Below, one piece after another: positions 1,560 to 62,589 of a stretch of 64,000 nt of DNA (its first letter is position 1; the number at the start of each line of letters is the position of its first letter). The notes beneath the pieces are model-generated. The model saw only the letters and a program-made list of their open reading frames with translations, made no database searches and had not been told where the DNA came from. The stretch spans positions 9,719-73,718 of IMG/VR virus record IMGVR_UViG_2757320370_000007. One strand, written 5' to 3'. This DNA comes from a virus. The translations under genes and the position numbers were made by a program.

Positions 1560-2930
1560 TTAGTTCTCCTCTTATTAATATTTTTAGTCTATATAATCTA
1601 CCGCCGACCGGAAAATCTCATCAAAAAACTCATTGTTTCCTGCATATCCACTCATATATGACAACATACTTATTAAATCTTCATTGCTTTTTTTAAGAAT
1701 GATCTCATTCATTCTTATTTCATGAAGATCAACATCCTCTACCAACGAGTCATTTTCATTTTGCTATTCTCATAGTTTTGTTTTATCTCCTTTAAGTTAT
1801 TATTTAACCGAACAATCTCTTCATCCTTCTCCTTTAGTTTCTTCTGATAATACTCAATTTCACATCCAATACATTGTCCATAAATGTATGCTGGGTTATC
1901 TTGATGTGTCTTGCATACTTTTGACATATGTTCTCCTCCTTATGAATCAGGTATTTGATCAAGAATTTTACTCTTCTTCAATATAAGTTAGTAGATACTT
2001 TACATCCTTTTTAATATTCTTACTCTGAACATTCATGATCTGCTGTGCCAATTCAAAACTGATTAATTTTTGATGAGCCATTTCTGAAACGTTGTTCATT
2101 AGGTGAGCATAGTCATAAATGTTCTTTGCACAGCCAGTAAGGTACTTCATCTCTGATTTTGATGGTGACAACATAACATTTTCTATTTGTTGCTCTTCCG
2201 CAATTTTATTGATTGCATTGCTCCAATCAGTGATATCTGCACTCGTTTTATTATTTCGCTTAGTCATTATGCGCTCCCCCATCTTTTGATAAATCTAGAC
2301 TTTCATTAGAATATTAATACCATTCCTCTTCTTCTGAAAAAGCATTGTAATTAACGTTTATTTTCGTATAATCACTAACCTTTCTCTCTGCTACATTACT
2401 TCCCAATTCTCGATGATACTGACAGGACTCATCTTTATGTATGCATATCTGATTGTTCCACATTAATCCTTCTGATGCAGTTCCTTTATGACTCCAATGT
2501 GATTCTGCTGAATAATGTTTGCTTGGATAGCCCCATCCAATACCTACATCACATACCAGCGTCTTTTTGAAAATTTCTTTTTTCACAAACACGTCTGCGT
2601 CTTGTTTAGACTCATTACACTTATTTTGCCAATATGTGCAAAATACATAATCGTCATTACCACTTTTGTTAGCGTAAATGCAAGTTGAACAATTCAAGAT
2701 TCTTTCTCCTCCTTCAGCTTCTTAATGTCCCTAAGTAACACTCTGATAAATCTATCTCCGTCAGATGCTCCCCATTCCTTGCCATTCACCAATAGCGTTA
2801 CCCAATTTCCATCATCAACATATTTATAAGTACTACCATTGTTTGCGATGGTCTCATACTCAAAAGTTTCTTTAAATCTGCTCATCATTTTCTCCTTTAG
2901 TGTTTTAATAAAACTTGTCTTTGATTAACT

Positions 2931-3776
2931 CTACTTTCGATACACAATCCATTCGCCACAATCAATCTTCTGTTGTGCTTCTTCTTCTGCTACTGGTCTA
3001 CCCGATCCATCCGCATAGATACAACGAACCTTTCCTGTCTCATATCCATCGAAATCACGATCCCACGAAATCAGCATCTTACCAACAATACGACTATAAA
3101 CAAACTCACATCCATCAATATCTGTGATATCGAAGTTTTCCACCTGACTCATGTCGCTCCCTTCCTTATTTCCTAATGCTACTCTAGCTCGTTTTCCTAT
3201 ATCACGATCCATCAGAGAGAAGAATATTCCACCTTCATATTCGCCCTGTTCCCAGTTGAGAGAATTCGCATACCACATTAAAGACTCTTCTAACCTCATA
3301 GCCCTTTCGTACTGATCGAAGTGCATTTTTTCAAACTCACATCCCTCGTCCTGTAAATGGGCTATGGTCTGCTGTGCCTCTGCCAATCGTTGAGCTAGTT
3401 CTAACGTCTCGTTGTAGTAGTTTTTATAATTGATCGCAGCAATGTTTCGCTGTTGTTGTGCCTCTTCCACCTCTCGTTTCAGCCGTGCGTTTATCTCACG
3501 GAGATGTTGATTATGGGCACGCTCATTGTGGTAGGCATCAAGCAATCTGCGTTTAGGCTGGTCAAGGGCTTGTTTTGCCTCTGTCAATCTACCTTCAAGC
3601 CTTGTTCCAATGTCTAGAGACTCTTTAAGCATCCATTCGCGTTTCGTTAGTTGTTGCTCCGCCTCTTCTAAAGCAGCCAGCAGTTTTACTGTTAATTCAT
3701 AGTGTTCAACGTCGCTAAAATCCCATTTTCTTTCCAATGTGTATTCTTTGTACTTTTTGAATTCTTCCGGTATCAT
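2931..3776 (-). CDS. Coiled-coil phage protein, apparently fused in frame to a second small gene starting at 3152
   Basis: Repeated EAQQ/EAEQQ helices; internal AAGGAAGGGAG RBS before MSQVENF. Confidence 0.6.
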   Translation of the reverse strand: MIPEEFKKYKEYTLERKWDFSDVEHYELTVKLLAALEEAEQQLTKREWMLKESLDIGTRLEGRLTEAKQALDQPKRRLLDAYHNERAHNQHLREINARLKREVEEAQQQRNIAAINYKNYYNETLELAQRLAEAQQTIAHLQDEGCEFEKMHFDQYERAMRLEESLMWYANSLNWEQGEYEGGIFFSLMDRDIGKRARVALGNKEGSDMSQVENFDITDIDGCEFVYSRIVGKMLISWDRDFDGYETGKVRCIYADGSGRPVAEEEAQQKIDCGEWIVYRK

Positions 3777-4273
3777 TTAGTTTTCTCCTTTTTGTTCATC
3801 AAATTATGTTTTTATGTATTTTCAGACTACAATTTTATAAAACTTCCGTTCATATGACTGTTTGCGATCCTCAGAAACATAAGCGTAATCACTATTTTTA
3901 CTCATATTGACAACCGTATCTCCTGAAACAACAAACTGTAAATTATGATATTGAACGATTCTGTAAGGATATGTATTAGTTACTCTTCCAGTTTCAACTG
4001 CACGTTTAATTTTGAAATCAATTTGATCATATGTATCACATTTATGAGCACTATATGGACAAAGTTCCTGATATTGTTCTCGAACCAATTGTTTAATCTT
4101 CATTGATCAATTCCTCCATTCGAATGAATTTTTCTTTGTCGTATTCACTGAAGGTAGACTCTATATTTTGGTCAAACTTCCCTTGATTATATGCCATTTG
4201 ATAATGGTGTCTTCTGATTACATCAAATCGACTGGACCAAATATACGAACAACTAAATTATCGATAATCTTTT

Positions 4274-4825
4274 TCATTGCGCAATAGCCACCTCCATCAG
4301 ATTTGTTTCTCCAAACATTTGAGCTAACGCATTTGCAATTTGATTTGCCATATCCATGACCAAACTAAGTCTTGTATTTTGTAGAACAAAGTATTCCATA
4401 TATCCTCCAACATTTACAATTCCGCTAATACTATAATCACCCACCCTGCCTAGATCCTTTCCGACTCCAGCACCAGGAGATATACCGCCCTTAAATACTT
4501 CGATTACTCCAACAGAGGATGAGTTTCCCAGGCAAGCATCAATTGCGATTATGGTTTTATCTAAAGGGATAGAATCAACTTTTTCTTTCAGATTAACTGC
4601 ATGAACTGGATTATGTATTGTACCAAGCACGTTGTCGAATCCTAACTGCTCCAGCATTGTTCCAACCATTGGTCCAAGTGAATCTCCTGTTGATCTGTCC
4701 GTTCCAATGCAGACAAACACGATGTCTTCATTATAAATATCTTTATCAATAACGTGTCTAATCGCTTCAAACAATCCTGTTTTACCTAACTCCACTCTTC
4801 TGAGTCTGGTTCTGTTCTTCTTCAT
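4274..4825 (-). CDS. yyaC: Spore protease YyaC (GPR-like)
   Basis: CIGTDRSTGDSLGP, IAIDACLG, PGAGVGK and LQNTRLSLV motifs. Confidence 0.9.
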   Translation of the reverse strand: MKKNRTRLRRVELGKTGLFEAIRHVIDKDIYNEDIVFVCIGTDRSTGDSLGPMVGTMLEQLGFDNVLGTIHNPVHAVNLKEKVDSIPLDKTIIAIDACLGNSSSVGVIEVFKGGISPGAGVGKDLGRVGDYSISGIVNVGGYMEYFVLQNTRLSLVMDMANQIANALAQMFGETNLMEVAIAQ

Positions 4826-5115
4826 TTAATTTTCCCTCCTGTTATACAAACATCATTATTCACTCTAGACATTTTAAAAGGTCTGTCCGTTGTTGCTTCA
4901 TACTTCAGCAGCTCTTCATATGTATCTTCGGTTGGTTTAAATTTATCGCCATTCTTGGTGATATAATCATGTTTGCTATCAATTATGAAACTGATTGCTC
5001 TTCGCTCATCTTCAACCCAACATTGAGATAGTATTGTTCTGGCTTCATGGCTTAGTTCTGAATTGGTGCTGTTTGTCGAAACAATTGATTCTTCTTTACT
5101 ATTTTTACTTTTAAT
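4822..5115 (-). CDS. Hypothetical protein with ATT start; paralog of 42512..42769 (not in ORF track)
   Basis: AGGAGG-8nt-ATT, 97 open codons, ATGA overlap with yyaC; ELSHEARTILSQCW..PTEDTYEELLKY matches DLSIEAKSVVERCW..PTEDTYNEVLKY. Confidence 0.75.
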   Translation of the reverse strand: MKSKNSKEESIVSTNSTNSELSHEARTILSQCWVEDERRAISFIIDSKHDYITKNGDKFKPTEDTYEELLKYEATTDRPFKMSRVNNDVCITGGKIK

Positions 5116-5172
5116 ATTTATCTCCTCCTATAAAATAAAAGTACAGGCTTTTTGTTTCTTTAACCTGTACTT

Positions 5173-5215
5173 AGTGTAACACTTATTATGTTATTTGTAT
5201 ATATGTTTACTTTAT
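5173..5215 (-). promoter_or_regulatory. Sigma-A-type promoter with repeated AAAGTAAACATAT operator
   Basis: TATACA-17-TACACT (TG-extended) with the motif overlapping the -35. Confidence 0.6.
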
Positions 5216-13661: not shown

Positions 13662-14181
13662 TTTATTTCTCCTTTTAATATGTATTTTCACTTTATAAAA
13701 CTTATTTCTTACTTAAGCCGATCATACCAAACTCTCTGATCAAACTCTCTCCAAGCTTCCTTCCAAAACTTCTCATCCAGAGTATCCATTTTCTTAAATT
13801 CCTTCACTCCGATGAATTCCTTTAACTTCTTCTTCACATAAGCATCCTCATGCAAATTCACCTCATTCTCGCTTCCCATATCATTCTTGAAACAATCATA
13901 CAGCGCATCTCCCAAACTTATGTATGTTTTATTTGTCATTGTTTAATCTTTTTAACACCTCCCCATTCTCCAATTTCATATCCTTCGGGAAGCTCATCGA
14001 TAATATCCCATCGACTTAATATATTCTCTTTCCTATCCCCTAAACTTTTACAGAAAACATTATTCTCGTCATACCAATGTACTGATCCACCAAACATTGA
14101 ATATTCTAGTGTTCCAAATCTTCCATCTTTCTTATGTTTCAGGATTTCCAATTAATCACCACCTTTTATACTCATATTTTA

Positions 14182-14986: not shown

Positions 14987-15046
14987 ATAAAATTTGACTT
15001 TCGTGTGCTTTTCAGTGTTAGAAATCCCTTATAAAACAAGGTTTTT
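14987..15046. repeat. Composite site: 18-bp palindrome + 17 bp + AAATCCCTT-N7-AAGGTTTTT
   Basis: Same fixed spacing at 20541-20599, 27930-27989 and 31629-31688. Confidence 0.75.
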
Positions 15047-16586: not shown

Positions 16587-18601
16587 TTTAGCACTCCTTT
16601 TAAGGATTCCATTTCATTTTGAATCTCAGCAATCTTCTTGTCATAATATTTCATTTTGGATTCTTTGGCAGATTCAAAATCTATAATTATTGTTTTACAT
16701 TGTTTCTTATAATGCTTTACACATTCTTTTTCATCGTAGAAGATATTGAGTGATGTTCCAGTTAGTGATCGATATCCAGTGTTATCATATGGAGCAATCA
16801 CTTGTGCTAACGGTTTGCCATTCTTCCCAAATGGCCTAAAGTGAAATTCCGAATAATATACAGTTTTATTACTTGGCAATTCTTCATTGCTTACGACCAT
16901 AACTTTGGTGGGCTTAACATGACGGATTGGTTGATTATCAATATCGTTAAATCGATAATCGCATATCCAGACTTCTTCTCCAATCTTGACTACTTTGTTA
17001 TACTCAGTGTGATTCAATTATAAGCCCTCCCAATTATTTATTCCTAACTTCTATTGATTTCTTCAATAGCCACACCACTTAGCCTCATAATATCCAACAA
17101 CATATTTGGTATGTTTTCTCTTACACATTCCCATCCATACAGAGTAACACCATAATATGCACCTTCTACTTCAGCATCTTCATCAAACATATCTCCTCGA
17201 AGTCGAATCATTCTTTCTTTAAAATTTTCTTGTCCAATGCAATTGTATTCTTTATCGTAAACATCATATATTTCATCGTCTTCTTCTTTGTATTTATATG
17301 ATGTAATTATCTTACCTTCATTTCCAGCTACTGGATCAGATTTTAGCCATTCATACACTTCTTCATCTGATTTAGCTTGCAGATAGGTTACTATTCCGGC
17401 TTTACTGTCTTTTGGAGCAAAATGCTCAAACATAATTTTATATAGATTCATTTTTAATACGCCCTTCCTTCATATTAACGATCTTAATTATTTCATTATA
17501 TTTATTGCTATCAAAATGAATACTGTTCCTAATAAATGAGCCATATTCTTTTTGGTTATATAATTCCTTAAGTTCTTTAGTACACTTTTTAAAGTTTGAA
17601 AGCCCTGCAAACAACACTAGAACTGGGAAAAGAATAGTTGTTAGAGCAATGGCAATATTATTTGTGAAGCTGTGAAGAATAACCCCTTGATCACTATAAT
17701 AATATTCATATTTATCATTCCACTTGATTTGACGATATTTGAATAATGAATTATGCTGCTCCTTTGTTAATTGGAATTTTATGTACCCATATTCGGTTGG
17801 ACATTTATATTTATAGTTAGACACTTAGTACCTCCATTTATGTCTTGCTTTCTGTTCCTCTTGTCCCAATCTTTTAAAATGGCATTCCAACATTCATCTG
17901 ATCCCTTTAATAATAGATAGTCTGGAATTTTGTACGTATCTTGTACCCCATATTGACCAAGTTCAATAATATAATGTCCATTTGTTATCTCCCCCTCCAC
18001 CCATTTTGCATATTCAATGTTTTTCTCTTTATGCGACAGCTTAGTCCATTGATCATATAACTCTTGTGCGGTGTCAATATAGTTCAATCTTAGTTTTGAG
18101 TACATAACTTTGATCCTCCTTATTATAAAATACGCCTTTTACCGACTTCCTCGTTGATCTACAAGCTCTTTAATTAGCAAATCATGCAACTCTCTACTAA
18201 TACTCTTCCATTCCATGTCTTTATCTGTTCTAATGCCAATGCTAAACGAGTCTGTTACTGTATCTGTACAAATTCTTACCGATCCATTATTTACTTTAAG
18301 AATCGTCGTCCCTCTTTGTCCTGATAGCACACTACCCCACTCCTTTCCTTCTCTATGAAATCTCTCTTTTACGCAAACTCTAAATAATTTATTGCCTCAA
18401 TAACATCTATGTTCATCTAAGCACCAACCTCATGTTGAATCGACTCAATATCTGAAATCAGTTTCGTTGTTTCTTCGATATATTCTGGATACTCATTTTT
18501 AAGATAATCTACAGCAATCCATTCGCTCAAATCAAACCTTGCTTTTTCAAGCAGATTTAGTATTTCTTTCATCTGATCAACTATACCCATCAATCATTCT
18601 C

Positions 18602-18870: not shown

Positions 18871-19708
18871 TAATACTCATCATCTCCCGACTCTTCGATT
18901 TCATCAATTTTTGTTCTCAACAATTCAATGTCATCATCTAATTCCGCAACATTTGCCATCAATAGATTTATTTGAAGTTGTAACCTTGTTCTCGTTTCGA
19001 TTTTGGAGCCTAATTCATCAATCAATAAGTCATAATCATTCATGCCGCCCATTCCTTTCAGTATCAAATATATCTTTCATCAGTATTAATACCTTATCAC
19101 AGGTCTATCTTTCCAATCTCTTTTCCTATCAAGAACATATTTACCTCTATACTTGTCAGACAACTTAAGATTTTTCTGGGCTTCAAGCATGTCAATTTTT
19201 TCTGAAATGTCTCTGCGTTGTTTATATAGCTTATCTAGTTGTTCATATATCTGTTCCAATGTTGGATTTAGGTTGATCATTTCATACACCCTTTATATAT
19301 TATTGTTTGATTGCTTCTAGCAAACAATCAAGCGCTTCAGCAATATATCCATCCTCTTTATATTCAACGCTTAGTTGTTGATACACACCTTCAATCTGAT
19401 TATAAGCTCGATACAAAATATCTTTTTGCTCCTTGTTAATGTTCTTGGTTTTGATCACTGTTCATTCCTCCTTTTATTTGAGATAAAAGCATTATTTCAT
19501 TAGTCACACGACTAATCTATAAATTCATAATGCCCATGCTGGACGACATCAGGACCATCAGCCCAAACTTGGATACCTATAAATGAGTATATATTTTCAT
19601 CTCTTACGAGGAATTGTTCCCCAACTTCGTACCAATTGTAATCTTCTCTTTTAATCACTCTAATATTTTTCATTTTATATTTTCCTTTCTTATACATTAT
19701 TAATCTGA

Positions 19709-20047: not shown

Positions 20048-20540
20048 TTCCTCCTTTCTAAATCAAACTTGTATTCTATCAGGTTTTTATTTTGCTAATG
20101 CAGCAAGTTCTTCCCATCGTTTTCTCACATTTGGACTAGTCATTCCATCATCATTTTCTAGTTTCTCTTTCGCTACTTTCCCCACCTCAGGTTTCCAATC
20201 TTCTATCCATTCACGCACCTGATTAATTAAATCATACTGGGGATAAAGAAGTTTGCTGCCATCAACGATTCCAAAAGGTCCTTCAATTCCTTTTGTTTTT
20301 CTTATAAATTCCATCCCAGACCAACCGCATTGAAATCCAGTCATACCTTGCTTTGAAGCAAAATAATTGAACATTGCAACCGTTACATTGGCAAGTGATT
20401 CAGCAATTGTATTGTAGTCATGACTTTGATTTTCTTGCTCATGTAAATAACTAATTAATTCTTCTTCCGTTGTAGGCCAAGCACCATACTTTCCATCTTT
20501 CAAATAAATCATCCTTTTTTATATGTATTTTTAGTTACTG

Positions 20541-20599
20541 ATGAAACAGTTCTTTTACGATGGAATGTACCTCTTAAAGCCCAATAGAATCAATGCTTT
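20541..20599. repeat. Composite site (18-bp palindrome + 17 bp + degenerate second palindrome)
   Basis: ATGAAA-cagttc-TTTTAC then AAAGCCCAA-TAGAATC-AATGCTTT. Confidence 0.6.
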
Positions 20600-42499: not shown

Positions 42500-42511
42500 A
42501 AAAGAATTGTT

Positions 42512-42769: not shown

Positions 42770-42792
42770 ACAAACATCTCCTTATGAAAGTA

Positions 42793-44448: not shown

Positions 44449-44995
44449 CACATTATATAACATTCAACCCCACAGGTAAAGGCGAAAAGAATCGATCCTT
44501 ATTTATCAGAAATCGACTCTTAGTTCATTAGAAATGTTATCCACTTTTTTCGTATTCAAACATGCTTCTAGTTGCCTTTGTGAGCAGCATTATCCCCTCT
44601 AGCTCTCCGTCTAGATACATTTCAAACTCTTGCCCTAAATATGGCACCAAGAGGATGTGGGCGGGAATGTTGCCATAGTTTCTAACGTGCTGCTCTCCGC
44701 TGGGCAATTCAAAACATGTGATAATTTTTGTCTCGCGTTCCGTTGTCTTCATATGTATGCGAAAAACAAAATCAGTCTTCACTGGAAACTCATACTTATT
44801 ATCTTTACTTTGTCTCTTGCTTTTGCTGATCTTTTTCATCTACATTCTCCTTTATATTGATCGTAAAGCGATACTTTTATGTCGTTTGAGAATCAGTTTC
44901 TAGAGTTGGGCATATTTCAATTATTATTCATTTTATATACTATTTTTTTAATAAGTGATAAAATAACTACATTAAATATATGGGGGAATTTGGTA

Positions 44996-45809: not shown

Positions 45810-48800
45810 ATTAAAAGCCCAATTTCATCCGATTACTTTTAGTCTTCTGTTATAAAATCTTTACACTCTTTAATTTCATTTGTATTATCAAAATCTCTTC
45901 TAACTTCGATATTGCTTGAATTGCAAAATTCTATACAGATATAATCGCCATCTCCAATATCCACATTGCACTCATGTTCGAAATGTTTGCAATTTAAACA
46001 AATACTATCAGTGTAAACCTTCATCTTAATTCTCCTTATCCATTAATTCTATTAGCATTTAAATTAAAGAGTGTCTATTCATTACCGCGATTATTAAGAA
46101 GATGACCAATGAACCCAAATAGTATTGCTTCAGAGAGATAGTCATCTTATTTAATTTATATAGCCACTTGATATGGTAGAACAGAATTAACATTGAAAAT
46201 AGCAAGCCCATGGCTATTTGTAAATAGTTGTGCAGCAAATAACTTCCTTCCTTTCTCTCTACTCAAAATTATATATTACTTTTTCAATCCAACGGTTCAA
46301 TTCATTCAAGGTCTGATTCTTTATTTCATCACATTCTTCATTTTCATCATCATTATAAGAACTATATTGTGCTCCATTTTTCATGTCTAAAATTTGATAA
46401 TATTGATAATCACAATCATTCACAACTCTCTTTACGTCTTCAATTGTATTAAACGCAGTGACGATATCATTTAATCCGCCCGATGGATAATATGCGTCAA
46501 AACCAAAAAGTATATATCTATTCAATTTCAAATCTCCTTTTCTCGATCAAATGTTCATTTTATTAAGAAATAGAAAAGCCAAATTTGTCAGTATAAAGAC
46601 ACGCTAACCACTCTGCACCAATTCGTATTCTCAAGTCCAAGTTTAGTGAATTTGCCAATTTTTCAAGGTCTTCATATTGCTCATATTCTTCAAGATACAT
46701 ATCATAAACTGGTTCACCTTTTCTCCCTGTCCCTGTATGTATTAAGCGATAAACTTCTTCAAATGGCTCAAGTTTTGCCTTTGCGTTTTCACCTATAAAT
46801 CTCCAGACTGTTTCCACTTTTAACTCATCCTTTCTCTTTAAAAAATGTAATTTATACGTTCATTTCAAATTTCTTTTCACCCAAATAAATAAGGGAAGTA
46901 ACAGAAGTGCATTGATGCATTAAATTGAAGAATTCATCCCCGTCTAACATATTTTTTTCAACCCACTCACCTTTTGAGATTGGATAGGAATCATACATCT
47001 CTCCGAAAAATCCTGCGGTTCCTGCGGGACCAAACTCATCTGCTCCATCATATTTGTCCGACCTAAATCCACCATCATAAAAGAGTATCACTTCTTTGTC
47101 TATACATTTATCTTCCAACAGCAACGGCAAACAACGTATTGCAGATGATATAGTGCCCAAATAATACGTTTTTTTATCTGATGGAACCGCCAATGAATAT
47201 GTATCTCCCATAAAATCTTCCTCATTTCTCCGTAAAGTATGTACTTCATTCAAACTTATTCATTTAGCACTCTTCCGCACATAGGACAGTAATTTATCTT
47301 AACACCATGTAATGAGAACTTAGCATTCCAATCTCCAATTTCACTGTCCTCCAGGTAATTGCAACTATTTATAAATACTGAATAGTCTCCCTTACCGCTA
47401 CTCATTAGGCACTTTCTATCTATCAGGGGTTTTTCAGTGCAATAATAACATATTTCCTTGGTTTTACCTTCTTCAATAAAGCTTAACATATCGTCCATTG
47501 CTTGGATTCTTCCTTCGCTCCTAAATGCATCTTCAGACATGATTTGATGATAGTTTAAAATATCGACCACCTCTCTTGCACGTTTCTTATAATCGTTCGC
47601 CCAGGCTATTAATTCTTCAATCATTCTCACTCCTCTCCATATGATTTGATCAATTTTTTAGTTGCTTGAATACCCCAATCTAATCTTTCGTTTTCTTTCT
47701 GGCACTTTGCTCTCCATTTCTGTAACTCTTTCTTCGTCTTGTCTTCGATACTTATTCCACGCATCGCATCAATAAGGGTCAATTTAATATCTACTCTGTC
47801 CTGTTGGTTTACTCCTGGTATGTATAATTCAATGACGGAATTGCACTTATCGATAATTCTTACATTTTTAATTCCCCATTTTCCTAATTCTATCATTGCT
47901 CTCCTCCATTATGTTTATCAATTTCAGCAGCCACGTCCAACATCTCTTTAGAAATCTCTCTCAATTTGTCGGCAGTCCTAGCTGTTCCTCCACGACCACC
48001 AAAATTCAATCCACTATGTAATATGTATGAATGATTTGACGAATCTTTGTTACCTTCGTTTTTCTTAATTGTTCCAGATACAAAGTTTCCTTTTACGATA
48101 ATCTCATTGCTAAACAAATTCATCTCTCCTTAGATTACTTCTCCGTCATATGGATTATCCATTTTGGCAATGTAGACTTTCTTTTCTAGATCATACTCCA
48201 TATAAGCAAATGGATGCTTTTTGTCAGTCTGATAAATTTCCGGTTCAATCGTTAGCTTTGGATTATAATAACAGTCATCGTATACTTCAATATAAACACC
48301 AGTTTCCTCTGACAATTGATTTAGTTTATCTAAAAATAATTTATACTTCTCTACAGTTATCATTAACCTTTCATCCTCTCTCTCATGAATTTGCTGTTGC
48401 ATTAGCACTCTTTAACTTCTACAGAAATGAGTACAAATTTCCCGATGTACTGAGCTAACATGTTTTCAATATTATGTCCTCCAATAGTCAGGTTCTCTGT
48501 ACTAAGATAGGATATCGTCAATTCTGAATATCCAATCCAATCTACCTGAACATCTAACTCTCCCATTGAACTTAAAATCTGAAAGTTAATTGCCTCATTA
48601 AGCGTAAATTCTTTTTCATTTAGGTAAATTTGAATAAAGACTAGAGGTGATGAAAAGTGTTTGAAAATCCCATCACCACCAATTTCTTTTCGGTGATAAT
48701 CACCTTCATAGTCTGGGAATTCAATATCAGTTAGTTGGTTTGCTATGTATTCACCCAAATTTGTTCCATTGATGCTAATACCATGGTGGTCTTTCTCAAT

Positions 48801-50899
48801 GATTCCACTTATAATTATTTTACCATTTACCATTTTTCAACCTCTTCTTCCGAAACAACACTAAACCCAAAGTTGACAGTACCCATTCTATTAACATAAG
48901 CATCTTCATCGGCTTTATAAATGTAATCTTGTCCTCCATATCTAAAAACATCGTCTTTCTTAATATTTTCAGGTTCTATCTTATACCACTCCTGATTTTT
49001 CAGCACTTCTATTTCCATTCTCGGCACCTCTCTCATTCTTTATTATTCTTCCTTTTAACTCATCTTACTCATTCGTTAACCACATGAACCTGATCAGGTG
49101 TAAACATTGCATAAATTCTCATCCTGTTTTTCTTTATAATCTCCATCTCTTGTCCAAGTAACTTCTTTATGGCTATTGCTTTGATTTTGGAACTTCCATC
49201 CCAGTTCATTCATCGTTGCAGCATGGACTAAATAATCTTCGAATGACTCATATTCAAACACTCTAATTTCAAACTTCATTTTTGTCATTTAAACACCTCT
49301 CTCATTCTCCTGTTTTCTACCATATTGTCGGTTTTACTTACCAGGGAACCCGATGAAACACGCATTTCATCGTACCAATAGGCCATCTTTAACATCCATT
49401 CCATTACCATCAATAATTCGTCCTTCCCCGTCAGTGATTTTAAAACCTGCCTCTTCAAATAATTCTGTTAATTCATCTTCAGTTATATTATTTAAAATTT
49501 TTTCAGCTCTTTCATATGGTGAATTCATAGTATCCTCCTGCCATGGTTCCCACACATACAACCCATGACCGTCACCCACCATTTTATATAAATCCGAACT
49601 GTGATCTCCTGAGAATCGTTCATTCAAAAAATCAACGATAGCCTCTCCATAATATTCGTTCACGTTCTCACAAACCAACTTGTCGTCAACAGACTCTCTA
49701 TCATAATTACCTACATTAATAATCTTCACTCTTCATTCCTCTCCTTTCTTTTCTAAATTCATTAAAGTAATCCAATCAACTCTAACTTGATTATATTTTT
49801 AGTTTCATCATCCGCAATGTTATAGTATTCCTTTAATTCCTTAACCTTATGTATCGCGTCCCATTTTTGAATATCTTTATTAATATTACTCAGTCTATTT
49901 GCAGCATTCTCAACATCCTCGATAGTAGTCCTGCTTCGGATAGTAAATTTGTTAAGATAGGACCCATCTCCATTGAGAGTTCTCATCTTCATCATTAAAA
50001 TGATCTTCTCTAATTCATATGGATTAGGTTGTTTCATTATTTCACACCTCCATGAATAACGTTAGTCAGCTTCTTAGTTCCAGTACCAAAATACTCTCCA
50101 GCACTTTTAAACTCTGTGTATGTAACTGGATCAAATCCTTGTGATCGTGCATGATTGCAATAGCGACCATACTTCTCTTGTGCGAAATAGCGTTTGTCTT
50201 CTTTCATTTCCCGATATGTAATCATTTGTTTAACCCATCCTTCCTGAACAACCCTACTCGATAAAACATAGAACTGTCACCGTGCATTATAATTGCACCA
50301 TGTGTAACATTGCATTTTGGGCAACTCAAATGTGTAACTCTTTTGTATAAACGAACATGTCGCCAATCTTAAATATCCGTTTCTAAATCATAACAATTAC
50401 AAGTCACTATGTAGCCCATTTCAACCCTCTTCCCCAACACCTCATTACTGGATTCACAATGATCATCTCTTTGATATCAACATCATACACGGGAGGCTCC
50501 CCATATGATCCTTCACTCATACACACAAAATCTCCGGCCTCAATTAATACATTTATGTATTTTGCACCAAAATCTTTTTCTGTGAAATGAACCCTATATT
50601 TATAGTCATTCGGATACTTTAAGTGTGATGGATGTAAAACTTCAGGATAACTCACCTGAATTTTTCCATAATCATAATTCAATCCCACTTCCCCCTCTTG
50701 TCTGTTCTTACATTATCGTAATTAATGGCCCAATGCTCACAAAGTCTTCGATCTATCTTATTTCTCATACGATTATTTTTAGTCTTAAACATCAAGTAAA
50801 TTAGCTGCTGCTCTTTTTTATAACTTAACTTGCAGCACTTTCTCAATCTTTTAGGCAACTTTTGACACTGTTGATTTGTTAACTGTATTCTGATCACCT

Positions 50900-51358: not shown

Positions 51359-51543
51359 CCACCCTATGTTTTCTTATTTTCACCACATCTTCTTCATAGT
51401 CATACCAAATATCAAGTACGTCTCCCCCACCAACATCCAGAAGTTTTCTTAATTCTTTTGGTATCACGACTCTACCTAAATCATCTAATCTTCTTACTGC
51501 TTTGCTACTTATCACAATTATCCCTCCTCATGAAACGTGCCTT

Positions 51544-52236
51544 TTACAGAATTTTGATCTTATCGTTGTACAACAACCTTTGATTATCTGGCAGTTCATC
51601 ATCATGATGAAAATGTCCAAAGAACCATTTTTCATATTCCAATTTGGACTTAATCACGTTAAAGTATTTATGCATCTGGTCAAGTTCAACGTTGGTGTTG
51701 TATCGCTGTATAATCCACGTCAGAGCATCATGAGAACATGTGTGAGTCAAGACATAATCGACAACCCAATGATTCTTATCCAAGTTTCTAATACCTTCTT
51801 GATATTCCTCAGAGCTAGGCATTTCACGTTCCCACCAAGATACATCAACCTTGCGATACTCTTTGTCATGTGAAGCAGACCCACCAAATGTGAAGAATTT
51901 CTTTCCTTCGATTTCGAATACTTGACCTCGCATTAAATGGATTATACTCGGCGTAATATGATGGACGTTACCACCATTCCATTCTGATACAGGATAAGAT
52001 TCCAGGAGATTAAAATTCTCATGATTCCCATCAATAAAAAGCGTAGTCCAAGGTTTATTTGTGAGCCACTTCAGCCAGAAACGATCTTCAGCGTCATCAG
52101 CCCATAGCAAGCCAAAGTCACCAACAATAATGATATAATCCTGTTTGGTTAGAGTCTTGCCTTGAGGGAAGTTCTTTGTGTTAAATCGACTACCTACACT
52201 TACTGAACCGTGAATGTCTCCTGTTATGTAGATCAT
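51544..52236 (-). CDS. Calcineurin-like metallophosphoesterase
   Basis: GDIHG, GDFG, DGNHE, THTC, GHFH. Confidence 0.9.
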   Translation of the reverse strand: MIYITGDIHGSVSVGSRFNTKNFPQGKTLTKQDYIIIVGDFGLLWADDAEDRFWLKWLTNKPWTTLFIDGNHENFNLLESYPVSEWNGGNVHHITPSIIHLMRGQVFEIEGKKFFTFGGSASHDKEYRKVDVSWWEREMPSSEEYQEGIRNLDKNHWVVDYVLTHTCSHDALTWIIQRYNTNVELDQMHKYFNVIKSKLEYEKWFFGHFHHDDELPDNQRLLYNDKIKIL

Positions 52237-53332
52237 ACTTTAGGTCTCCCCTTCACCATTAAACTTTGTCGAATAACTTCATAAACTCGTCTTTCTTTGA
52301 CGTTGCATCAATGGTCAACTTTGCAATTTCAGAATTCCTTCCCCATGATGATAATACGGTTGTCATAGCACTTATCTCTTTATCTACCTGCTTATCAAAC
52401 ATGTCAATGATTTTCTTGTATTGTGTCTCAGATATCTTTCTCAACTTATCATCACTCCTCTTAGATTGTTATTTCTCTTGCATAGATAAGTTCATCTTCT
52501 GTTGGATAATCATTTATTATATTTTGATATCCCCAAATCAACTCATGAAATATATCTTCATCTTTCTTCTTCAGTTCTTCAACTAATTTCAAATATCCAT
52601 CCACTTCACAGCGAGTAATTTTGGTTGATAATTCAATCTGCTTTGTTGGTATACAATCAAGTTCTTGGTAACTGTACTTGCATACTTCTGATTTGTCGCA
52701 CCATTCACATGAACAGTCTGCCATATAAATTCTCCTTTCGCATCATAAAATAGACCTTTTATGTTCTAGCCTTCATGCACTTCAATTCTGCTCATATACA
52801 GTCCACAGAGTAATTCAAAGTTTTGTTCAGATTCTGAGTCTAAAAACACTTCATCTTTTTTTAAATCTGCCATTGCTTTATCGAACACCGTTTTCGCAGT
52901 TCTTTCTTCCATGTAATGTCCATGACTTTTTTCTGCTTTACTCCACTCATCATATTCATGAACGTGCCAAATCTCCATTGCATATCTCCCTTCTAAATGA
53001 AAGAACTATTTCAAGTTATCACAATGATTATCTTTATCCGTTCTAAGTAGAATCTCCAATGTCTTCTGAATTTTTTGTAAAGTGTTTTTAATATTGTCTT
53101 TTCTGTTTTCTTCATTAAATGTAATCGATAACTGAACATCAATTACCATTTTGTCGTTTCCAATGTCAATCTTTTTATAATCAAAGCCAAACGTCTCATG
53201 TGTATTATTCTCTGCTAGTATTTCATCATAAATTCGCTTACTCCAATATTCTCTACTCATTTCTTTTTCTGCTTTATCCATGCGTATTATCCCCCTCTAT
53301 AAACTCATAGGTGGTATATAACCACTACAGTC

Positions 53333-54133: not shown

Positions 54134-55336
54134 TATTAAATTTCTCCCTTAATATATGTATTTTTACTTATTAAACTTAATATTATTTTCTTGCATGAAG
54201 TCCTCTAGAATTGTTCTTTGATCATTTGTTAATTCCAATTCATATGTATAAATCGTTCTATCTTTTGGCAATGGTTTGTTGATTTCATTGTATTCAACAG
54301 TATTAATCCCATCGACCCAATATAGTCTGTCTCCGATATCTTGTTTGGCACTTCCTATTTCTGCTTGAATTTCAACATCATAGAACTTGTCTCCGATCTT
54401 ACAAATCAAACTCACTTCGTCCTCGTAGTATCCTTGACCACAATTGAAGAATTCGCGCCCGCAATCTTCGAAATATTCTACAATTTCACTTTTATCAGTT
54501 AGATATTTCGACTCGTATACGTCATAATCTTCTTGTAAGTACTTTTCCATCGTTTTTCTCCCTTAATATGTATTGTTATTACCGTGAAACCTATCATTTA
54601 TCTAATTCCTTTGATCTCTCACATATTTATGTATATCAACCAACTCCCTAAATTTCCTCTTGTTCATCATTTCATCAATCTCATCCATCATCTGATACAT
54701 GGACTCCTGGAAGTCTTTCCGTAGAGATGACGGACAATCCAATTCATTTGGAGCTGCTGCCTCATGACCTTCTTGGCTTTCATGGCAACACGACTCAAAC
54801 GCATTCCACAGACAGTGTGTATTGTTACACTTCATCATTCTCCACCTTTCTACGTCCGTGCCTTCCTGCCGCCAAATCGTCTAGCATTGCACTGGAAGCA
54901 TATCCATTAGCAGTTCTCCAGAAAATTATATCGGCAGTTGGATAAACACCGTTGCCACAATTAGGGCAACATCTCTTTGGATTAGTCTTTTTAAACTTCA
55001 CAACCCTTGGTTTGTTTCCCTTCCATCCACAATTACACATCAATCTAATTGGTTCTGGCTGGTTGTGATATTTCTTAAATAGTTCTCCTGATACCATTAA
55101 CTACACCTCTCATATCCTTTTAAAAGTTATATTTCACCATACTATTAGTACCAATCTGGAGCATATCGTTCACTTGCCTCTTTTATCTTTACTTTTTCTT
55201 CTAAACATTTTTCACAGAAATATGTATCGACTCTTTTAAAGTAATCAGTCCAGCCGTTTGATTGTCTTGTTTTTTTAGTATCTAAATGAATAAATTTATG
55301 TTCACAACTCAGAACTTTCACCTCTTTTTTATCAAA

Positions 55337-55903
<567 letters not shown>

Positions 55904-56055
55904 TCACGTTTTGATTAGATTATGTCACCATCGCCAAAGATCAAAGCAAATAAGAAAGCTCCACCGCCACCAAGCAAAAGAGTGGCAGCAACACCTACAA
56001 AGAAACTGTTCCAATCAATACTATTGATAAATTCTTGCATGTTTATATCTCCTTC

Positions 56056-56763: not shown

Positions 56764-57290
56764 TCTGTTCTCCTCTCAATTTCTTAATCAAATTCTCCTT
56801 TCATTCAAACATCATATGACTAAAACCTTTTTCTTCATTAATTCCCCAATGTTCAAATTGAGATTTAACTGTTTGATCTTTTGAAACAACTATGTATAAA
56901 TCGCCCAACTTACTGAGATAAGAGTCTTGTGCTTCATTAACATATTCAGAATCCCCTACCCAGTCTACATAGAATTCATCTTTTGTTTCATCGTCATAAA
57001 TCAAATTCACTGAACAAATATCTCCGTTCGATAGTCGTTCGAAGGCGTTGTGTTTATATTCTTCGATATCAAACGCAAAATAATCTTTATTAGCGTGTTT
57101 GCTAATCGCAATTGAAAATAGATCACAAGTAGTCATATGCGTAATACTTTGATAATGTTTTGTAATATGATTTTTCAAATCTCTTACTTGAAAATTGCCT
57201 ATGTGTTTGCCCTCAATGATCAATACTTCACAATTTTCTAATCCAAACTCAACCGAAGTTATTTTCTTCAATTAATCTCCTCCCCTTTGT

Positions 57291-57659: not shown

Positions 57660-59021
57660 ATTATACCTCCTCTTGATTTTTCTTTTTCTTATTTGCTCGA
57701 CCTTTAGCTAAGTTGGCAGCCAATGCAGCTCTGCGTTCATCGCTCATAACACGTTTACTGTCACTTTTCTTACGGAAGGACACTTGTTCATATCCAACTT
57801 TATAGTATGAATTCCCTTCAGAATCTGTCTTATAAGGCTCGAAGCCAGCCTTAGACATCTTATTCATAACCTTGCTTGAGGCAGAGTAGATATCCCACTG
57901 ATCATCTGCATCCGAAATTCTAATCACCGTTTCACGCTCTTCTGCTAATGCCATTGTTATTTCCCACTTTCATATATATTTTTTTCGTAATAGTTTTAAT
58001 TCAAATCTTTTAGCATTCTTATAGTTTGTGGATGTCCAACTACCATGTCACCCATTATAAAAACGTCCTTTTTAGGAATATGAATATATCCATACCGTTT
58101 CATCCATTTTTTGTTTATGCGTTTCGATTTATGCGTTTTTGCCTGTTTCTTATCAACCATATGTATATTTTCAACAAATTTAAATCCAAGCAATGCTTCA
58201 CCTTCTTCTTGTAAAATGATGATTTCATACACTCAAATATAATAATCAACTTGTCTAAGCTCACTAAAAAAATACTCTCTCATCATTTCTTTGTCCTCAC
58301 CAAACTTTTCCAATTCCTTTTCAATATATTGTTGTGCGAGTTTTTCTAGGGTGAAGACACCTTTAACTTCGCTGTGAGTTGTGTCTGTTTGGTAATATAC
58401 TAAAGTAACATATTGCATATTGTCTCCTTCCCTGATGAATTATCAATTCTATTCTGCCTATTCATTTTTTCTCCATTCCTTAATCCATCCTTTTAGTCCT
58501 TTTGAGGAATAAGAAATCTCACCCCCGAATAATCCAATCCATACTAATGCGAAACCAACACAAGAGGTGCAGTACATATATGCATAAGCAAATCCTCCAG
58601 TCATTTCAATTGACGTATCTGGAAAGAAAATAGCAAACACCAGGAACGGAACAGCTAACAAATAAACGAACAAATGATTTAGAATATGTTTTATCAACTA
58701 TTTAATCTCCTTTACTTCAGCTTCAATTTCTTCATCTTCATTCACAACTTTAATTGTTATACCGTTCGTAACCTTCTCCCACTCCTTAGAGTCGAATCCT
58801 CTAGATTTAACTCGTACCTTTCCATAGCCTTCAATAAATGTATCATTTCTACTTACAAGCCCTGCTCGTTGAATGGCTAGATTTTCTGCGTGGCCCTCAA
58901 TTGTTTTACAGTCAAAAAAGCAGTCACTGAAATTATCCATCCACTCTTCATTAATAATATCTTCGTCTATTTCAACTATATATGTATTGGTTGTCACTAC
59001 TTCACATTTAAAATATTTCAT

Positions 59022-59723: not shown

Positions 59724-60878
59724 TTATCCTTTCTTAATTACTCTCAATATATTTCTTGACTTCCTCATATGTATGGAACATACATCCCGAATCCTGTACA
59801 ATTTCTTCGCCTTCTGCATCCAAATAATCGAAATCCACATCCCAAACTTGATGTTTTTTCATTAAGTCAACCAATTCCGGTCTTTTAATCTCATGGCCTT
59901 CTTTAATCAGTTTATCTTTGTAATACAATCCTTCCCAATCATCCAAACTTACAATGATAAATTTATTTTTCATAAACATCGATCCGTTTCTGTAGTTTAT
60001 TTTTACTACGCTGTTTCTTAGTCCGATTCTGAATTTTTTGCAAACGATGAATCTCATGTTGTATATCTACCGTTTCTCCCACACCTTTTAGTGCGCGCGC
60101 AATAGCTTTTCCTCCAGACTCAAATCTGTATGCCATATTATTAAAATTATCAAATAATTCATTCATATTTTTATTTGTCACAGGGATAGTGCTAATTTCT
60201 TTCTTACTAAATAGATTAAAAATGTTAAACTTCATTACAATCATCTCCTTTAATAATATTTATTTTTATAATACTCCTTACCTGAAACTTCTCTGTATGT
60301 TGCCTTGCCACATTTCAAACATCTGCTAAGTGTTTCTGACTCAAAAACCTCTTCACCGCAGCTCACGCATTTGTCTGAGTCAAAACCAATTTCATTATCA
60401 ATATTCAATCTTTCACCTCTTTGAAGGAAATGCGGAATTTATCAAATTAAATCTCTTTATAAACCGCTCTAAATCTCTTACCATGCTGAATTACATTATC
60501 AAATTCATCTTCTGTTTCAATTCTTTTTGTATGACGGATGATTTCGCTTGGAGGATATGGAAATTCATATGGTGAATAAACAAACACCTCTGTTGATCCC
60601 CTCCATGAAATAAATTCAAGGCCATTATAGCCTCTCCAGAATACTTCTGATTTCATTTATTGCTCATCTCTCCTCTTTTTCTTCACTTCTTTAATCAATG
60701 TCCAACCATAGTTTGATCAAAACTCTTCTATTTCGTATCTATTTAGAGCAACTTCAACAGTCTCCTTGAAATCTTTTGCCTTATCTCTTAATTCCATTAG
60801 CTCATGATAACTGCAATCATTGTCTTGAAAGAAAATACATAGTTCTTGAAATCTTTCGAAATTGAATGTCATAAAATA

Positions 60879-61737: not shown

Positions 61738-62252
61738 TAGTCCACTTCCTTTTTAATTATTTGAACATGCAGATTTTGTCTGCCAAAATCTAAAGCACGA
61801 TCTAAATCCTCAATATAGATATCTAACTTACCTTCAGTAATCGCAGAGCCTCTATCGCTACAAACATATGTATTATCAAGTTCTTTTATTTTCACCCCTG
61901 TTCCAAATTCCATTGATTTGGGGCAAGCGATAGAACTACCTTCAACGGTACGCTTGCCGTTAGCCTGAATCCCATATCCTTTTTCGCCTTTGTGTTTTTG
62001 CGTAGATTCGTAACCATTGGTATAGGCACTCACGCTGTAGATTTCCCATTTTCCTTCTGTCTTTACGATGGATTTTGGTTGAACCTTCGCAGCTTCCTTC
62101 TCATTTTCAGTCTCAACAGTTTGAACAATTTTCCTCTCAATTGGAATAGTGTTATTTGATTCTCTAATTTCATTTGCATTTTGAATGTTTGAATGACTCA
62201 ATGCAAAAGCGAACATCAGAGACAGAATGATCTCTAGCATCAGAACCTCCAC
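61737..62252 (-). CDS. Secreted 3D-domain protein (YorM-like)
   Basis: Signal-like N-terminus, SAYT, DRGSAI..LDIY..FGRQ. Confidence 0.8.
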   Translation of the reverse strand: MEVLMLEIILSLMFAFALSHSNIQNANEIRESNNTIPIERKIVQTVETENEKEAAKVQPKSIVKTEGKWEIYSVSAYTNGYESTQKHKGEKGYGIQANGKRTVEGSSIACPKSMEFGTGVKIKELDNTYVCSDRGSAITEGKLDIYIEDLDRALDFGRQNLHVQIIKKEVD

Positions 62253-62261
62253 ATTTTAGAT

Positions 62262-62289
62262 ATAGCCCCACATTTTTTTGTGAGGCTAT
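62262..62289. other. Intergenic hairpin
   Basis: ATAGCCCCACA-ttttt-TGTGAGGCTAT. Confidence 0.55.
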
Positions 62290-62506
62290 GTATTTTTATT
62301 ATTAAAAAACTAACTATTGTTGTTCTACTTTAAACCAAACTCCAATAGAACTACCTTTACGCATTGACTCTGCGTGAATGTACGCCGCATCATATGTATC
62401 AAACTCCAAAGTCTTCTCGTGGCTACAAGCATATCCCGCAAATTTTTCTCCACCATACACTTTTACTTTATACAACTCAATCACCCCTTTAGTCTTTAAA
62501 ATCATA

Positions 62507-62549
62507 TCTATATGTAGTATTTAATAATTATTTTAACACTACATATAGA
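62507..62549. other. 12-bp inverted repeat
   Basis: TCTATATGTAGT...ACTACATATAGA. Confidence 0.55.
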
Positions 62550-62589
62550 CAATAAATCATGATCAAATCTGTCTTTTATGAGGTCTTAA

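Follow-up and report, generated by a model that had tools for sequence, protein, structure and literature searches.

The 18-bp palindromes that recur between the genes of the analysed DNA (a stretch of 64 000 nucleotides, referred to below as the window) are best read as position-coded joints, because related phages share their spacers in collinear order, the flanking DNA is unrelated and homology breakpoints fall at such sites. From sequence comparison, the sites are probably conserved recombination joints for gene exchange between phages. The asymmetric 6-bp spacer of each copy would act as an address; related SPbeta-like phages hold the same spacers in the same order, and the DNA between two addresses would be exchanged for the unrelated DNA that another phage carries in that slot. 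Since addresses and order are common, slot content would be replaceable while gene order is kept and core genes are not lost. The outcome would be a slot-by-slot exchange of mostly promoterless accessory genes.

Motif and placement between genes

33 perfect matches to RTVAAA-N6-TTTBAY were counted in the window, compared with 1.15 ± 1.15 expected from 100 dinucleotide shuffles (largest value 5). An earlier note on this DNA had given about 31 perfect copies and a chance level of about one per 64 kb, and 15 one-mismatch copies at junctions; 32 one-mismatch copies were found, of which about 20 lie at gene junctions. The core TNAAA-Nk-TTTNA occurred 46 times at k = 6 and 4–10 times at each other k from 2 to 11, while the reversed arrangement of the core arms was flat (7–10 across k). 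In the 8.54-Mb genome, 49 of 97 motif matches fell inside a low-GC, SPbeta-like prophage of 175 kb, which contains about 50 copies of the palindrome among its small early genes; the host genome outside the prophage was at background level.

The arms common to all copies are RTNAAA and TTTNAY, with a weak extension to about 9 bp, and the half-site centres are 11 bp apart. This 6-N6-6 arrangement resembles a tyrosine-recombinase core site, as had been suggested, and fits a two-fold symmetric protein on double-stranded DNA. No covariation was detected between arm positions 3 and 16, so the element consists of two independent half-sites; a hairpin reading was rejected for the same reason. Judged from the sequence, the arms are presumably the half-sites of a dimeric phage protein bound to double-stranded DNA. 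All spacers in the window differ, as the note had claimed (no duplicates among 65 perfect and one-mismatch sites). No published description of such elements was found in the literature searched.

The genes of the window are all on the minus strand. As claimed, 32 of the 33 perfect sites occupy the short gap that separates a stop codon from the following ribosome-binding site. Relative to the upstream stop they lie at −12 to +44 nt, mostly at −4 to +12, and in about ten cases the TAA or TGA of the left arm was the actual stop codon. The distance to the next start was mostly 14–25 nt, with the Shine–Dalgarno (SD) sequence directly 3′ of the site. The perfect match at 55865 is a gene start (MKVFFD) and probably a chance match. 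Perfect sites were absent from 3816–14764 and from 27948–34391, in agreement with the two site-free core blocks described previously. The view that most units are promoterless also held: no conserved −35/−10 elements were found in the site flanks, and promoter-like matches were at background level. The sites are listed below by window coordinates (no strand assigned), with the spacer on the sense strand and the related prophages (G135, G097, G109) in which the same spacer was found; entries are junction sites unless described otherwise.

1942..1959, one mismatch, TACCTG; G135
2289..2306, one mismatch, GTCTAG
2908..2925, perfect, GACAAG; G097
3798..3815, perfect, ACATAA
13163..13180, one mismatch, ATAATA; G135, G109
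13695..13712, one mismatch, AATAAG, left arm holds stop codon
14765..14782, perfect, TGTATC
14987..15004, one mismatch, GTCAAA, terminator-like hairpin on 5′ side; G135, G097, G109
18125..18142, perfect, GGCGTA; G097
18355..18372, perfect, GAGAGA
19063..19080, perfect, GATATA; G135, G097, G109
19483..19500, perfect, TAATGC; G097
20062..20079, one mismatch, TACAAG; G097, G109
20541..20558, perfect, GAACTG; G097, G109
23374..23391, perfect, CTTATC, 32-bp island of 94% identity; G135, G097
24024..24041, perfect, ACATAC; G135, G097, G109
25049..25066, perfect, GAATAG; G097
26264..26281, perfect, TAAAAG
26444..26461, perfect, TTAGAA
27930..27947, perfect, TATAGG, border of helicase/primase block; G135, G097
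31629..31646, one mismatch, GAGGTA, other border of helicase/primase block; G135, G097
33253..33270, one mismatch, CCCTCA; G135, G097
34392..34409, perfect, GTTCTG; G135
35957..35974, perfect, GCCCGA; G135, G097
37133..37150, perfect, GCTTGA; G135, G097
37424..37441, perfect, GTTTAC; G135, G097, G109
38375..38392, one mismatch, TTTTCC; G135, G097, G109
39365..39382, perfect, CAAATA; G097, G109
39817..39834, perfect, GTGGCA; G135, G097
40044..40061, one mismatch, TGTGAA
40508..40525, perfect, CCAATC
40701..40718, perfect, TTAGCC; G097
41649..41666, one mismatch, TGAGTC
42498..42515, perfect, CAATTC; G097
42784..42801, one mismatch, TAATAC; G097
44863..44880, one mismatch, GTATCG; G097
45811..45828, one mismatch, TTGGGC; G135, G097
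46546..46563, perfect, TGAACA
49353..49370, perfect, TGCGTG; G135, G097, G109
51530..51547, perfect, GGCACG; G135, G097
52745..52762, perfect, GGTCTA; G097
52997..53014, one mismatch, TAGTTC
54584..54601, one mismatch, GATAGG
55120..55137, one mismatch, TATAAC; G135, G097
55331..55348, perfect, TTGTAA
55865..55882, pattern match at gene start (ATG AAA GTG ...), probably no site
55898..55915, perfect, ACGTGA
56787..56804, perfect, GGAGAA, G097 homology starts at site; G135, G097
58211..58228, perfect, TCATCA; G135
60700..60717, one mismatch, CTATGG
62562..62579, perfect site, GACAGA, in a longer regulatory gap, adjoining an inverted pair of TCTATATGTAGT; G135, G097

The constant position on the coding strand, a few nucleotides 5′ of the SD, would suit a motif that acts in mRNA, whether by marking a processing site, forming a small hairpin or binding a translational regulator. 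This is extremely improbable: inverted symmetry means nothing to a protein that binds single-stranded RNA, any stem would amount to AAA/UUU plus one pair with positions 3 and 16 not covarying, and an RNA signal leaves position-specific spacers between unrelated genes unexplained.

Use of the sites by XerC/XerD-type resolvases of the host, with slots resembling the dif modules of Acinetobacter plasmids and no phage enzyme involved, was considered improbable. With its 6-bp spacer and A/T-rich inner arms the element resembles dif-type sites, and accessory regions in which several pdif sites flank adaptive genes have been described (PMC6449649). However, the arms are symmetric and short, while dif and pdif have two different 11-bp arms, and outside the prophage the motif does not exceed background in the host genome. 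A query of the host genome with a B. subtilis dif consensus gave only one weak match, off the skew extremum, so that no likeness to the host dif could be demonstrated.

Spacers kept by position in related prophages

The window and its prophage were compared with the three related prophages. Identical spacers numbered 23 for window–G135, 33 for window–G097 and 33 for G135–G097 (shuffles 2.9–4.6, maximum 8–10), and collinear chains took in 23/23, 31/33 and 31/33 of them, respectively. G109, with a helicase 55% identical, gave collinear chains of 8–15 spacers with the other three prophages (11 with this one), against a chain of 2.1–2.4 expected by chance (shuffled maximum 5–7).

74 of 85 same-spacer pairs had no homology in either 250-nt flank, and arm position 3 agreed at the random level in same-spacer pairs (0.41 versus 0.40). 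Between consecutive shared addresses, 10 of 22, 15 of 30 and 17 of 30 slots were without protein homology, and only 16–26% of genes had a homologue in the same slot. A site was present at one of 16 gene junctions with conserved neighbours and at 57 of 108 junctions at synteny breaks. The earlier proposal that the sites bound accessory-gene units is thus upheld in that the units differ between related phages and the comparative data link the sites to gene exchange. In statistics that pool related genomes, one duplicate spacer within a genome was observed (8.4–8.8 expected) and one palindromic spacer (5.7 expected). One gene of G135 was joined directly to a later address, against a same-spacer rule.

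Around same-spacer sites, conservation is asymmetric: it stops sharply on the left and tails off across about 10 nt on the right. Such a diffuse right boundary would not be expected from clean exchange at the two spacer edges.

The note had supposed that non-homologous spacers are tolerated; the opposite was found, each spacer being position-specific and kept from phage to phage. Exchange thus resembles replacement in place and in register, not free insertion and excision of cassettes. The note's integron-like scheme, in which a recombinase tolerant of different spacers would cut out promoterless cassettes as circles and insert them at any site, is very improbable. The array does consist of small, mostly promoterless genes in one orientation with inverted-repeat sites between them, and gene content between sites is highly variable. 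Nevertheless, no attI or IntI adjoins the array, the 18-bp sites have neither attC architecture nor hairpin covariation, no attC-like folded site is present, there is no sign of one-end insertion, and position-kept spacers in collinear order are unexpected if cassettes insert anywhere.

Breakpoints and the candidate enzyme

The motif TNAAA-N6-TTTNA is enriched in SPbeta, phi3T and Goe12. Of 64 intergenic homology breakpoints among these three phages, 13 were no more than 12 nt away from a site, where 5.6% would be expected (P about 5e-5). A three-way junction falls exactly at the edges of ATAAAA-TATTCC-TTTTAT. The single laboratory junction reported as 'non-homologous', N1 (Dragos et al., 10.1101/2020.05.06.055103, Suppl. 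Table 1), lies at SPbeta 116414, where this same site starts, and its other end is 14 nt from the same-address site in phi3Ts. The other 15 of 16 laboratory junctions lie within long homology. Of the intergenic breakpoints in the SPbeta family, about 80% are away from strict sites (several at SD sequences), and at SPbeta 87603 the upstream gene and left arm are the same as in phi3T with a different spacer, which breaks the same-spacer rule.

The breakpoints away from sites, the laboratory junctions in long homology and the diffuse right boundary favour a reading of the sites as operators or stoperator-like roadblocks at which a dimeric DNA-binding protein of the phage controls the early genes, with exchange as a by-product; we regard it as rather unlikely. 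General or relaxed homologous recombination, through RecA or an annealing protein of the phage, would then use the sites as short boundary homologies, these being the longest conserved intergenic stretches. Such a use was proposed for PeSLs and lambdoid boundary sequences, and phage recombinases recombine short, diverged homologies (PMC2327257). The position of the sites directly 5′ of the SD in tiny gaps over the whole early cluster, and the 11-bp spacing of half-site centres on one DNA face, a classic dimer geometry, also favour it. On the other hand, an arm-reading regulator gives no reason for spacers that are unique per genome and asymmetric, or for spacers kept by position at 55% helicase identity while arm position 3 drifts. 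Since the arms and SD are common to all copies, one would expect relaxed homologous recombination to connect different sites as well and to disturb their order, but the chains are collinear. The sites are also without an associated promoter, and the known SPbeta repressor operator, SPBRE, is a different sequence.

For position-coded joints, the crossover enzyme would be a site-specific tyrosine recombinase that recognises the arms and acts only where the spacers, its overlap region, match, much as cassette exchange works with heterospecific lox sites. The candidate is the orphan YopP-family recombinase conserved in these phages, and a YopP-type mechanism at the sites is possible but doubtful. 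The window contains no recombinase gene, as noted earlier, and the only PF00589 protein of the prophage is a YopP homologue about 38 kb past the window end (E 8e-28 to SPbeta YopP; invariant R, K, H and Y), an orphan that agrees with the expectation of tyrosine recombinases in this phage family. In this prophage copy the second-His position is occupied by Q, and in SPbeta YopP the second Arg is replaced by K. A homologue is present in 5 of 116 genomes of the genus, all five motif-rich; as this co-occurrence is within one phage family, it does not count as independent evidence. Strong conservation covers only 6 bp of each arm, compared with 11–13 bp in lox, FRT or dif. An MrpR homologue is encoded about 5 kb past the window end, and a serine recombinase at the prophage end is the integration enzyme.

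Comparison with known systems

In heterospecific lox/FRT cassette exchange, sites have common inverted arms and an asymmetric spacer, only same-spacer sites recombine, and the segment between two different sites is replaced in register without deletion. That arrangement is artificial, with 13-bp arms and an 8-bp spacer, while spacer dependence in the present sites is only inferred. We know of no natural genome with dozens of heterospecific lox/FRT-like sites.

Stoperators of cluster A mycobacteriophages, which are binding sites of the immunity repressor (PMC3029335), are likewise short protein-binding sites (24–34 copies) in short intergenic gaps genome-wide, but they are 13 bp long, asymmetric, oriented with transcription and near one consensus, with no position-specific variable centre. 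SPBRE, the operator of MrpR (YopR) in SPbeta (Kohm et al. 2023, PMC10516654), also recurs in the intergenic DNA of this phage family, and the protein that binds it has a tyrosine-recombinase fold; SPBRE differs in sequence (TAGACA..ATACA-N7-TGTAT..TATAAT, an early promoter) and occurs in about ten copies, in promoters. Identity of the palindrome with SPBRE was rejected on sequence, and both elements coexist in SPbeta.

The modular theory of phage evolution, in the summary given in PMC3029335, proposes short conserved gene-boundary sequences with unrelated DNA on both sides as crossover points; the present sites are at most accessory-gene boundaries and have a common palindromic frame. The pdif sites and dif modules of Acinetobacter plasmids (Mindlin et al. 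2019, PMC6449649) are similar in that accessory regions hold many recombinase-type sites with a 6-bp centre, and these flank adaptive genes mobile between replicons. They differ in being 28 bp long, with two different 11-bp arms (XerC and XerD sides), alternating orientation and host enzymes, and their modules move between locations, whereas here the addresses are fixed and collinear, the arms short and symmetric, and about 50 sites per genome are found on a phage replicon.

The promoter-early stem-loops (PeSLs) of T4-type phages were proposed to serve modular shuffling (Arbiol et al. 2010, PMC2839356). They too are a short motif repeated among small non-essential genes in variable regions, with insertions, deletions and replacements between related phages at the motif. 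PeSLs consist of a sigma70-type promoter and a terminator hairpin, while the present element has no promoter and no real hairpin. Near-identical PeSL copies recombine with each other (mini-circles); here each copy has a unique, position-kept centre, and exchange appears to be limited to equivalent positions.

Palindromic sites in the early region of an SPbeta-like prophage

The window corresponds to G000:C1:4033557-4097556 in a genome of 8.54 Mb with approximately 50% G+C (G000) and lies inside a 175-kb island of low G+C content (33-37%; approximately 4,023,500-4,198,500). It holds about 140 mostly small ORFs, nearly all on the - strand and preceded by strong Shine-Dalgarno (SD) sequences. The part of the island past the window end encodes an MrpR homologue carrying both MrpR Pfam domains, AgrB-like and LytTR-like genes directly downstream of it (Pfam; L028:2918-4663, about 3-4.7 kb past the window end), a YopQ/DndB-like protein and a UvrD-type helicase adjoining a tyrosine recombinase. 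A large serine recombinase is encoded at the right end. This layout is that of an SPbeta-like prophage, integrated by the serine recombinase at its end; SPbeta itself integrates with the serine recombinase SprA.

The 18-bp pattern RTVAAA-N6-TTTBAY, consisting of two arms and a 6-bp spacer, was matched perfectly 33 times in the window, against 1.15 matches expected from shuffles (largest shuffle 5). For the core TNAAA-Nk-TTTNA, k = 6 gave 46 occurrences and every other spacing 4-10, with no such peak when the arms were reversed; the spacing of the arms is strictly 6 bp. All but one of the 33 perfect copies lie in short gaps between genes, as do about 20 of the 32 copies with one mismatch. The array of junction palindromes described in the earlier note was accurate in these respects: all spacers in the window differ, and the two conserved blocks that it had named contain no perfect site. 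One one-mismatch match (6518-6535) is a false positive of the pattern: it falls within the coding sequence for a protein with the N-terminus MTDMIKQPFQ, a sequence that is conserved in two genomes with related prophages, G135 and G097. The sites typically lie at -4 to +12 nt from the upstream stop codon, which is often a TAA or TGA within the left arm; the SD sequence follows immediately 3' and the next start codon 14-25 nt beyond the site. The prophage accounts for 49 of the 97 matches in the whole genome, most of them in the - strand early cluster and seven in the 60-kb late cluster.

The strongly conserved arm comprises 6 bp, with a weak palindromic extension to about 9 bp. At arm positions 3 and 16 the combinations A-C, G-G and A-G are as common as Watson-Crick pairs and the two positions vary independently; a hairpin or RNA signal was rejected because of this lack of covariation. 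Inverted symmetry without pairing, together with half-site centres 11 bp apart, points to double-stranded DNA bound by a protein of two-fold symmetry. A promoter function was also rejected, since no -35/-10 elements are conserved in the 40-nt flanks of the sites and promoter-like matches are at background (91 versus 87.8 expected). MrpR, the master repressor of SPbeta, is a catalytically inactive protein of tyrosine-recombinase fold, and its operator is the SPBRE (PMC10516654). Derived from ten SPbeta promoters with ChAP-seq peaks (PMC10516654), the SPBRE is the conserved early promoter TAGACA..ATACA-N7-TGTAT..TATAAT; the palindrome differs in sequence from the 15-bp SPBRE and was discarded as an MrpR operator.

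Other short elements were noted in the same gaps. The SPBRE-like 12-mer TCTATATGTAGT has 12 matches in the window against 8.7 expected, a count too near expectation for an element repeated through the window, and only one perfect inverted pair. This pair (62507-62549, copies 19 nt apart) shares a 114-nt gap with the adjacent site 62562; a TTGACA promoter is present in the homologous DNA of G097, and the pair is possibly the main early promoter/operator, the counterpart of SPBRE. A perfect consensus promoter (TTGACA-17-TATAAT, 14182-14210, - strand, in a 252-nt gap) is among the few strong promoter candidates of the early cluster. A second short motif, AAAATACATAT, occurs between the palindrome and the SD sequence of several junctions, for example just 3' (sense) of 20541, 25049 and 33253. 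On the sense strand, sites 14987, 27930 and 31629 are preceded, at a distance of approximately 17-25 nt, by terminator-like hairpins (aaaaccc...gggtttttt), which place these sites at the ends of transcription units.

Spacers in related prophages

A 20-kb megablast query had no match in the phage collection, exact-protein look-ups for two window proteins returned nothing on record, and a related-locus search with the helicase found none among genome contigs and one IMG/VR contig; a DNA search of 60 relatives yielded short patches only. As DNA searches gave little, relatives were sought by the motif count per genome across the genus, which was above a reversed-pattern control in seven of 116 genomes, G000 included. 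Related prophages were located by their helicase homologues in G135 (86% identity), G097 (78%), G109 (55%) and G088 (52%). For comparison, 100-140 kb were taken from each of G135, G097 and G109, which contain 39-46 perfect sites each. Reciprocal best hits of the approximately 140 window genes number 23 in G135 and 35 in G097; apart from a few, they follow the same order.

Identical spacers common to pairs of prophages: pair; identical spacers; expected from shuffled spacers; collinear chain
Window and G135; 23; 2.9-4.6 (maximum 8-10); 23 of 23
Window and G097; 33; 2.9-4.6 (maximum 8-10); 31 of 33
G135 and G097; 33; 2.9-4.6 (maximum 8-10); 31 of 33

The collinear chains that link the more distant G109 to the three phages comprise 8-15 spacers (11 for this prophage), compared with an expected chain of 2.1-2.4 (maximum 5-7). 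The earlier note had proposed that non-homologous spacers are tolerated; identical spacers at equivalent positions in related phages contradict this. No homology was detectable in either 250-nt flank, beginning 30 nt from the site, for 74 of the 85 same-spacer pairs. In the profile of these pairs, where the spacer is 100% identical by construction, identity is random upstream and at arm position 3 (0.41 versus 0.40) and is raised at arm position 16 and over about 10 nt downstream. The slots, meaning the DNA between two consecutive common spacers, lack any protein homology in 10 of 22, 15 of 30 and 17 of 30 cases; for only 16-26% of genes does the corresponding slot contain a homologue, and corresponding slots are of unequal length. 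A site is present at one of 16 junctions with conserved neighbours, versus 57 of 108 junctions at synteny breaks. Since same-spacer sites keep their order while the flanking genes are unrelated, the 18-mer with its own centre is a conserved island between unrelated genes: the palindromic frame is common, the centre is position-specific, and the order of the centres is maintained across diverged phages.

Within genomes, duplicate spacers are rarer than expected (one pair versus 8.4-8.8; naive P about 0.001), as are palindromic spacers (one of 290 unique spacers versus 5.7; P about 0.02), although the kinship of the genomes means that both figures overstate independence. Such rarity is what a directional, spacer-matching recombination system would need.

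Breakpoints in Bacillus subtilis phages

In the early regions of the B. subtilis laboratory phages SPbeta, phi3T and Goe12, TNAAA-N6-TTTNA occurs 37-51 times, the N7 form 27-38 times and the other spacings tested 8-20 times. The three phages are 93-98% identical over 33-78% of the early region, so that breakpoints can be read to the base. High-identity segments end at most 12 nt from a site centre in 13 of 106 cases, versus 1.1% by chance; with an intergenic-only null, 13 of 64 breakpoints are at sites versus 5.6% (P about 5e-5). Homology often starts exactly where the left arm does, or stops exactly where the right arm does. In the case of ATAAAA-TATTCC-TTTTAT, DNA common to SPbeta and Goe12 reaches the right edge, and DNA common to phi3T and Goe12 runs from the left edge on. 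The majority of breakpoints lie elsewhere, in genes or at SD sequences. Breakpoints at sites are present in this second, well-studied branch of the family. The gene-shuffling idea of the earlier note is supported by sites at synteny breaks, slots with unrelated genes and breakpoints at sites.

Sixteen junctions between phi3Ts and SPbeta were reported after experimental evolution, 15 of them in long homology (Dragos et al., 10.1101/2020.05.06.055103). The 16th, N1, was called non-homologous and placed "following yosA"; it joins SPbeta chromosome position 2170033 to phi3Ts 107382 (Suppl. Table 1, 10.1101/2020.05.06.055103). Chromosome positions were converted as 2,286,447 minus the record position, by which two other table boundaries match segment ends 132799 and 121805 exactly. 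This conversion puts the SPbeta end of N1 at 116414 in the record, where the TATTCC site begins. The phi3Ts site with the same spacer (107396-107413) is 14 nt from the reported end, which is also a CDS end. The placement of N1 on a same-spacer pair is suggestive evidence for exchange there, not proof.

Two features labelled 'palindrome' in the SPbeta GenBank record are other sequences. GTAAAC-CATATG-GTTTAC (L002:32394-32411; SPbeta 82394-82411), between yopR (mrpR) and yopS, has the 6-6-6 geometry of the sites but a palindromic centre.

Candidate recombinase and comparison with known systems

The only PF00589 protein of the prophage (366 aa; L029:17727-18827, approximately 38 kb past the window end) is a homologue of SPbeta YopP (27% identity, E 8e-28), the product of a conserved core gene of SPbeta-like phages (PMC10516654). 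Close homologues occur in exactly five of the 116 genomes of the genus, all motif-rich, and the distance between their genes and the helicase is similar throughout. Eleven aligned family members all retain the catalytic R, K, H and Y, so that an active recombinase is plausible; SPbeta and Goe12 have K in place of the second R, and the copy of this prophage has Q in place of the second H. Co-occurrence within one phage lineage and the geometry of the sites make this protein the candidate enzyme. No sequence match to it was found among solved structures, and SPbeta YomM is not related to it. A second low-G+C element of about 53 kb (G000:C1, approximately 3,224,000-3,277,000, outside the window) has six perfect sites and its own YopP-like gene (3266648-3267676, 44% identical); it has no spacer in common with the main prophage.

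We infer that slots are exchanged in register, with crossovers at the sites. Most economically, this would be the work of a tyrosine recombinase binding to the arms and dependent on matching overlap regions, as for heterospecific lox sites used in cassette exchange. Each genome would then carry about 50 heterospecific core sites with common arms, their unique 6-bp overlap regions serving as addresses, and the conserved orphan YopP-family recombinase would recognize them. Co-resident or co-infecting phages could swap any accessory-gene slot in register, while the differing spacers would prevent deletions within one genome. Such a natural recombinase-mediated cassette-exchange system in SPbeta-like phages is put forward tentatively, and we consider it rather doubtful as a whole. 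Caveats on slot exchange itself are the shortness of the arms, the asymmetry of conservation and several junctions between different addresses; clearly, general recombination has a part in shaping these genomes as well.

Whether phage mosaicism depends on dedicated boundary sequences or on random illegitimate joining followed by selection is a long-standing question. Here boundary sequences with a common putative protein-binding frame are identifiable at most accessory-gene boundaries, and their position code is conserved across phages with core proteins diverged to 55% identity. The proposed cassette-exchange system, if true, would provide the dedicated linker mechanism postulated by the modular theory of phage evolution but never found. 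It would assign a function to YopP and explain the turnover of anti-defence genes, which in this phage family have been reported among the small early genes such as the slots hold; Gad1 and Gad2 are annotated in SPbetaL records. Spacer-matched exchange, if real, would offer a ready-made multi-site tool for large-phage engineering. The idea is directly testable, as the same kind of site marks breakpoints in B. subtilis phages.

A literature search found no description of the element. An integron, the model of the earlier note, would have an IntI-type tyrosine recombinase gene with attI and Pc beside the array; no PF00589 match was found in or next to the window. The attC sites are imperfect palindromes of 57-141 bp that fold single-stranded, whereas the present sites are 18 bp long, without covariation at positions 3/16 or conserved flanks. 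Integron cassettes enter at one end and change positions; here the spacers are position-specific and collinear between phages, and the integron model is not supported.

The main rival to in-register exchange is a regulatory operator merely exploited by general recombination, as with PeSLs, where replacement breakpoints between related phages likewise fall at the repeat. The PeSL repeat contains a strong sigma70-type early promoter and a terminator stem-loop; here no promoter is conserved and the stem would be AAA/TTT only. Nor does an operator explain that each centre is unique and asymmetric and that its position is conserved. The stoperators of cluster A mycobacteriophages, bound by the immunity repressor, are asymmetric and oriented with transcription, whereas the present sites are palindromic.

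Modules of dif type have 28-bp sites with distinct XerC and XerD arms that resemble the host dif; the arms found here are short and symmetric, and a search with an approximate B. subtilis consensus identified no host dif. Core sites of the lox/FRT/dif type have inverted arms of about 11-13 bp; of the inverted arms here, just 6 bp are strongly conserved. The strict 6-bp spacing with almost exclusively non-palindromic centres resembles the asymmetric 6-8-bp overlap of these core sites, and the identical spacers at equivalent positions in different phages may correspond to the overlap shared by lox/FRT/dif partners.
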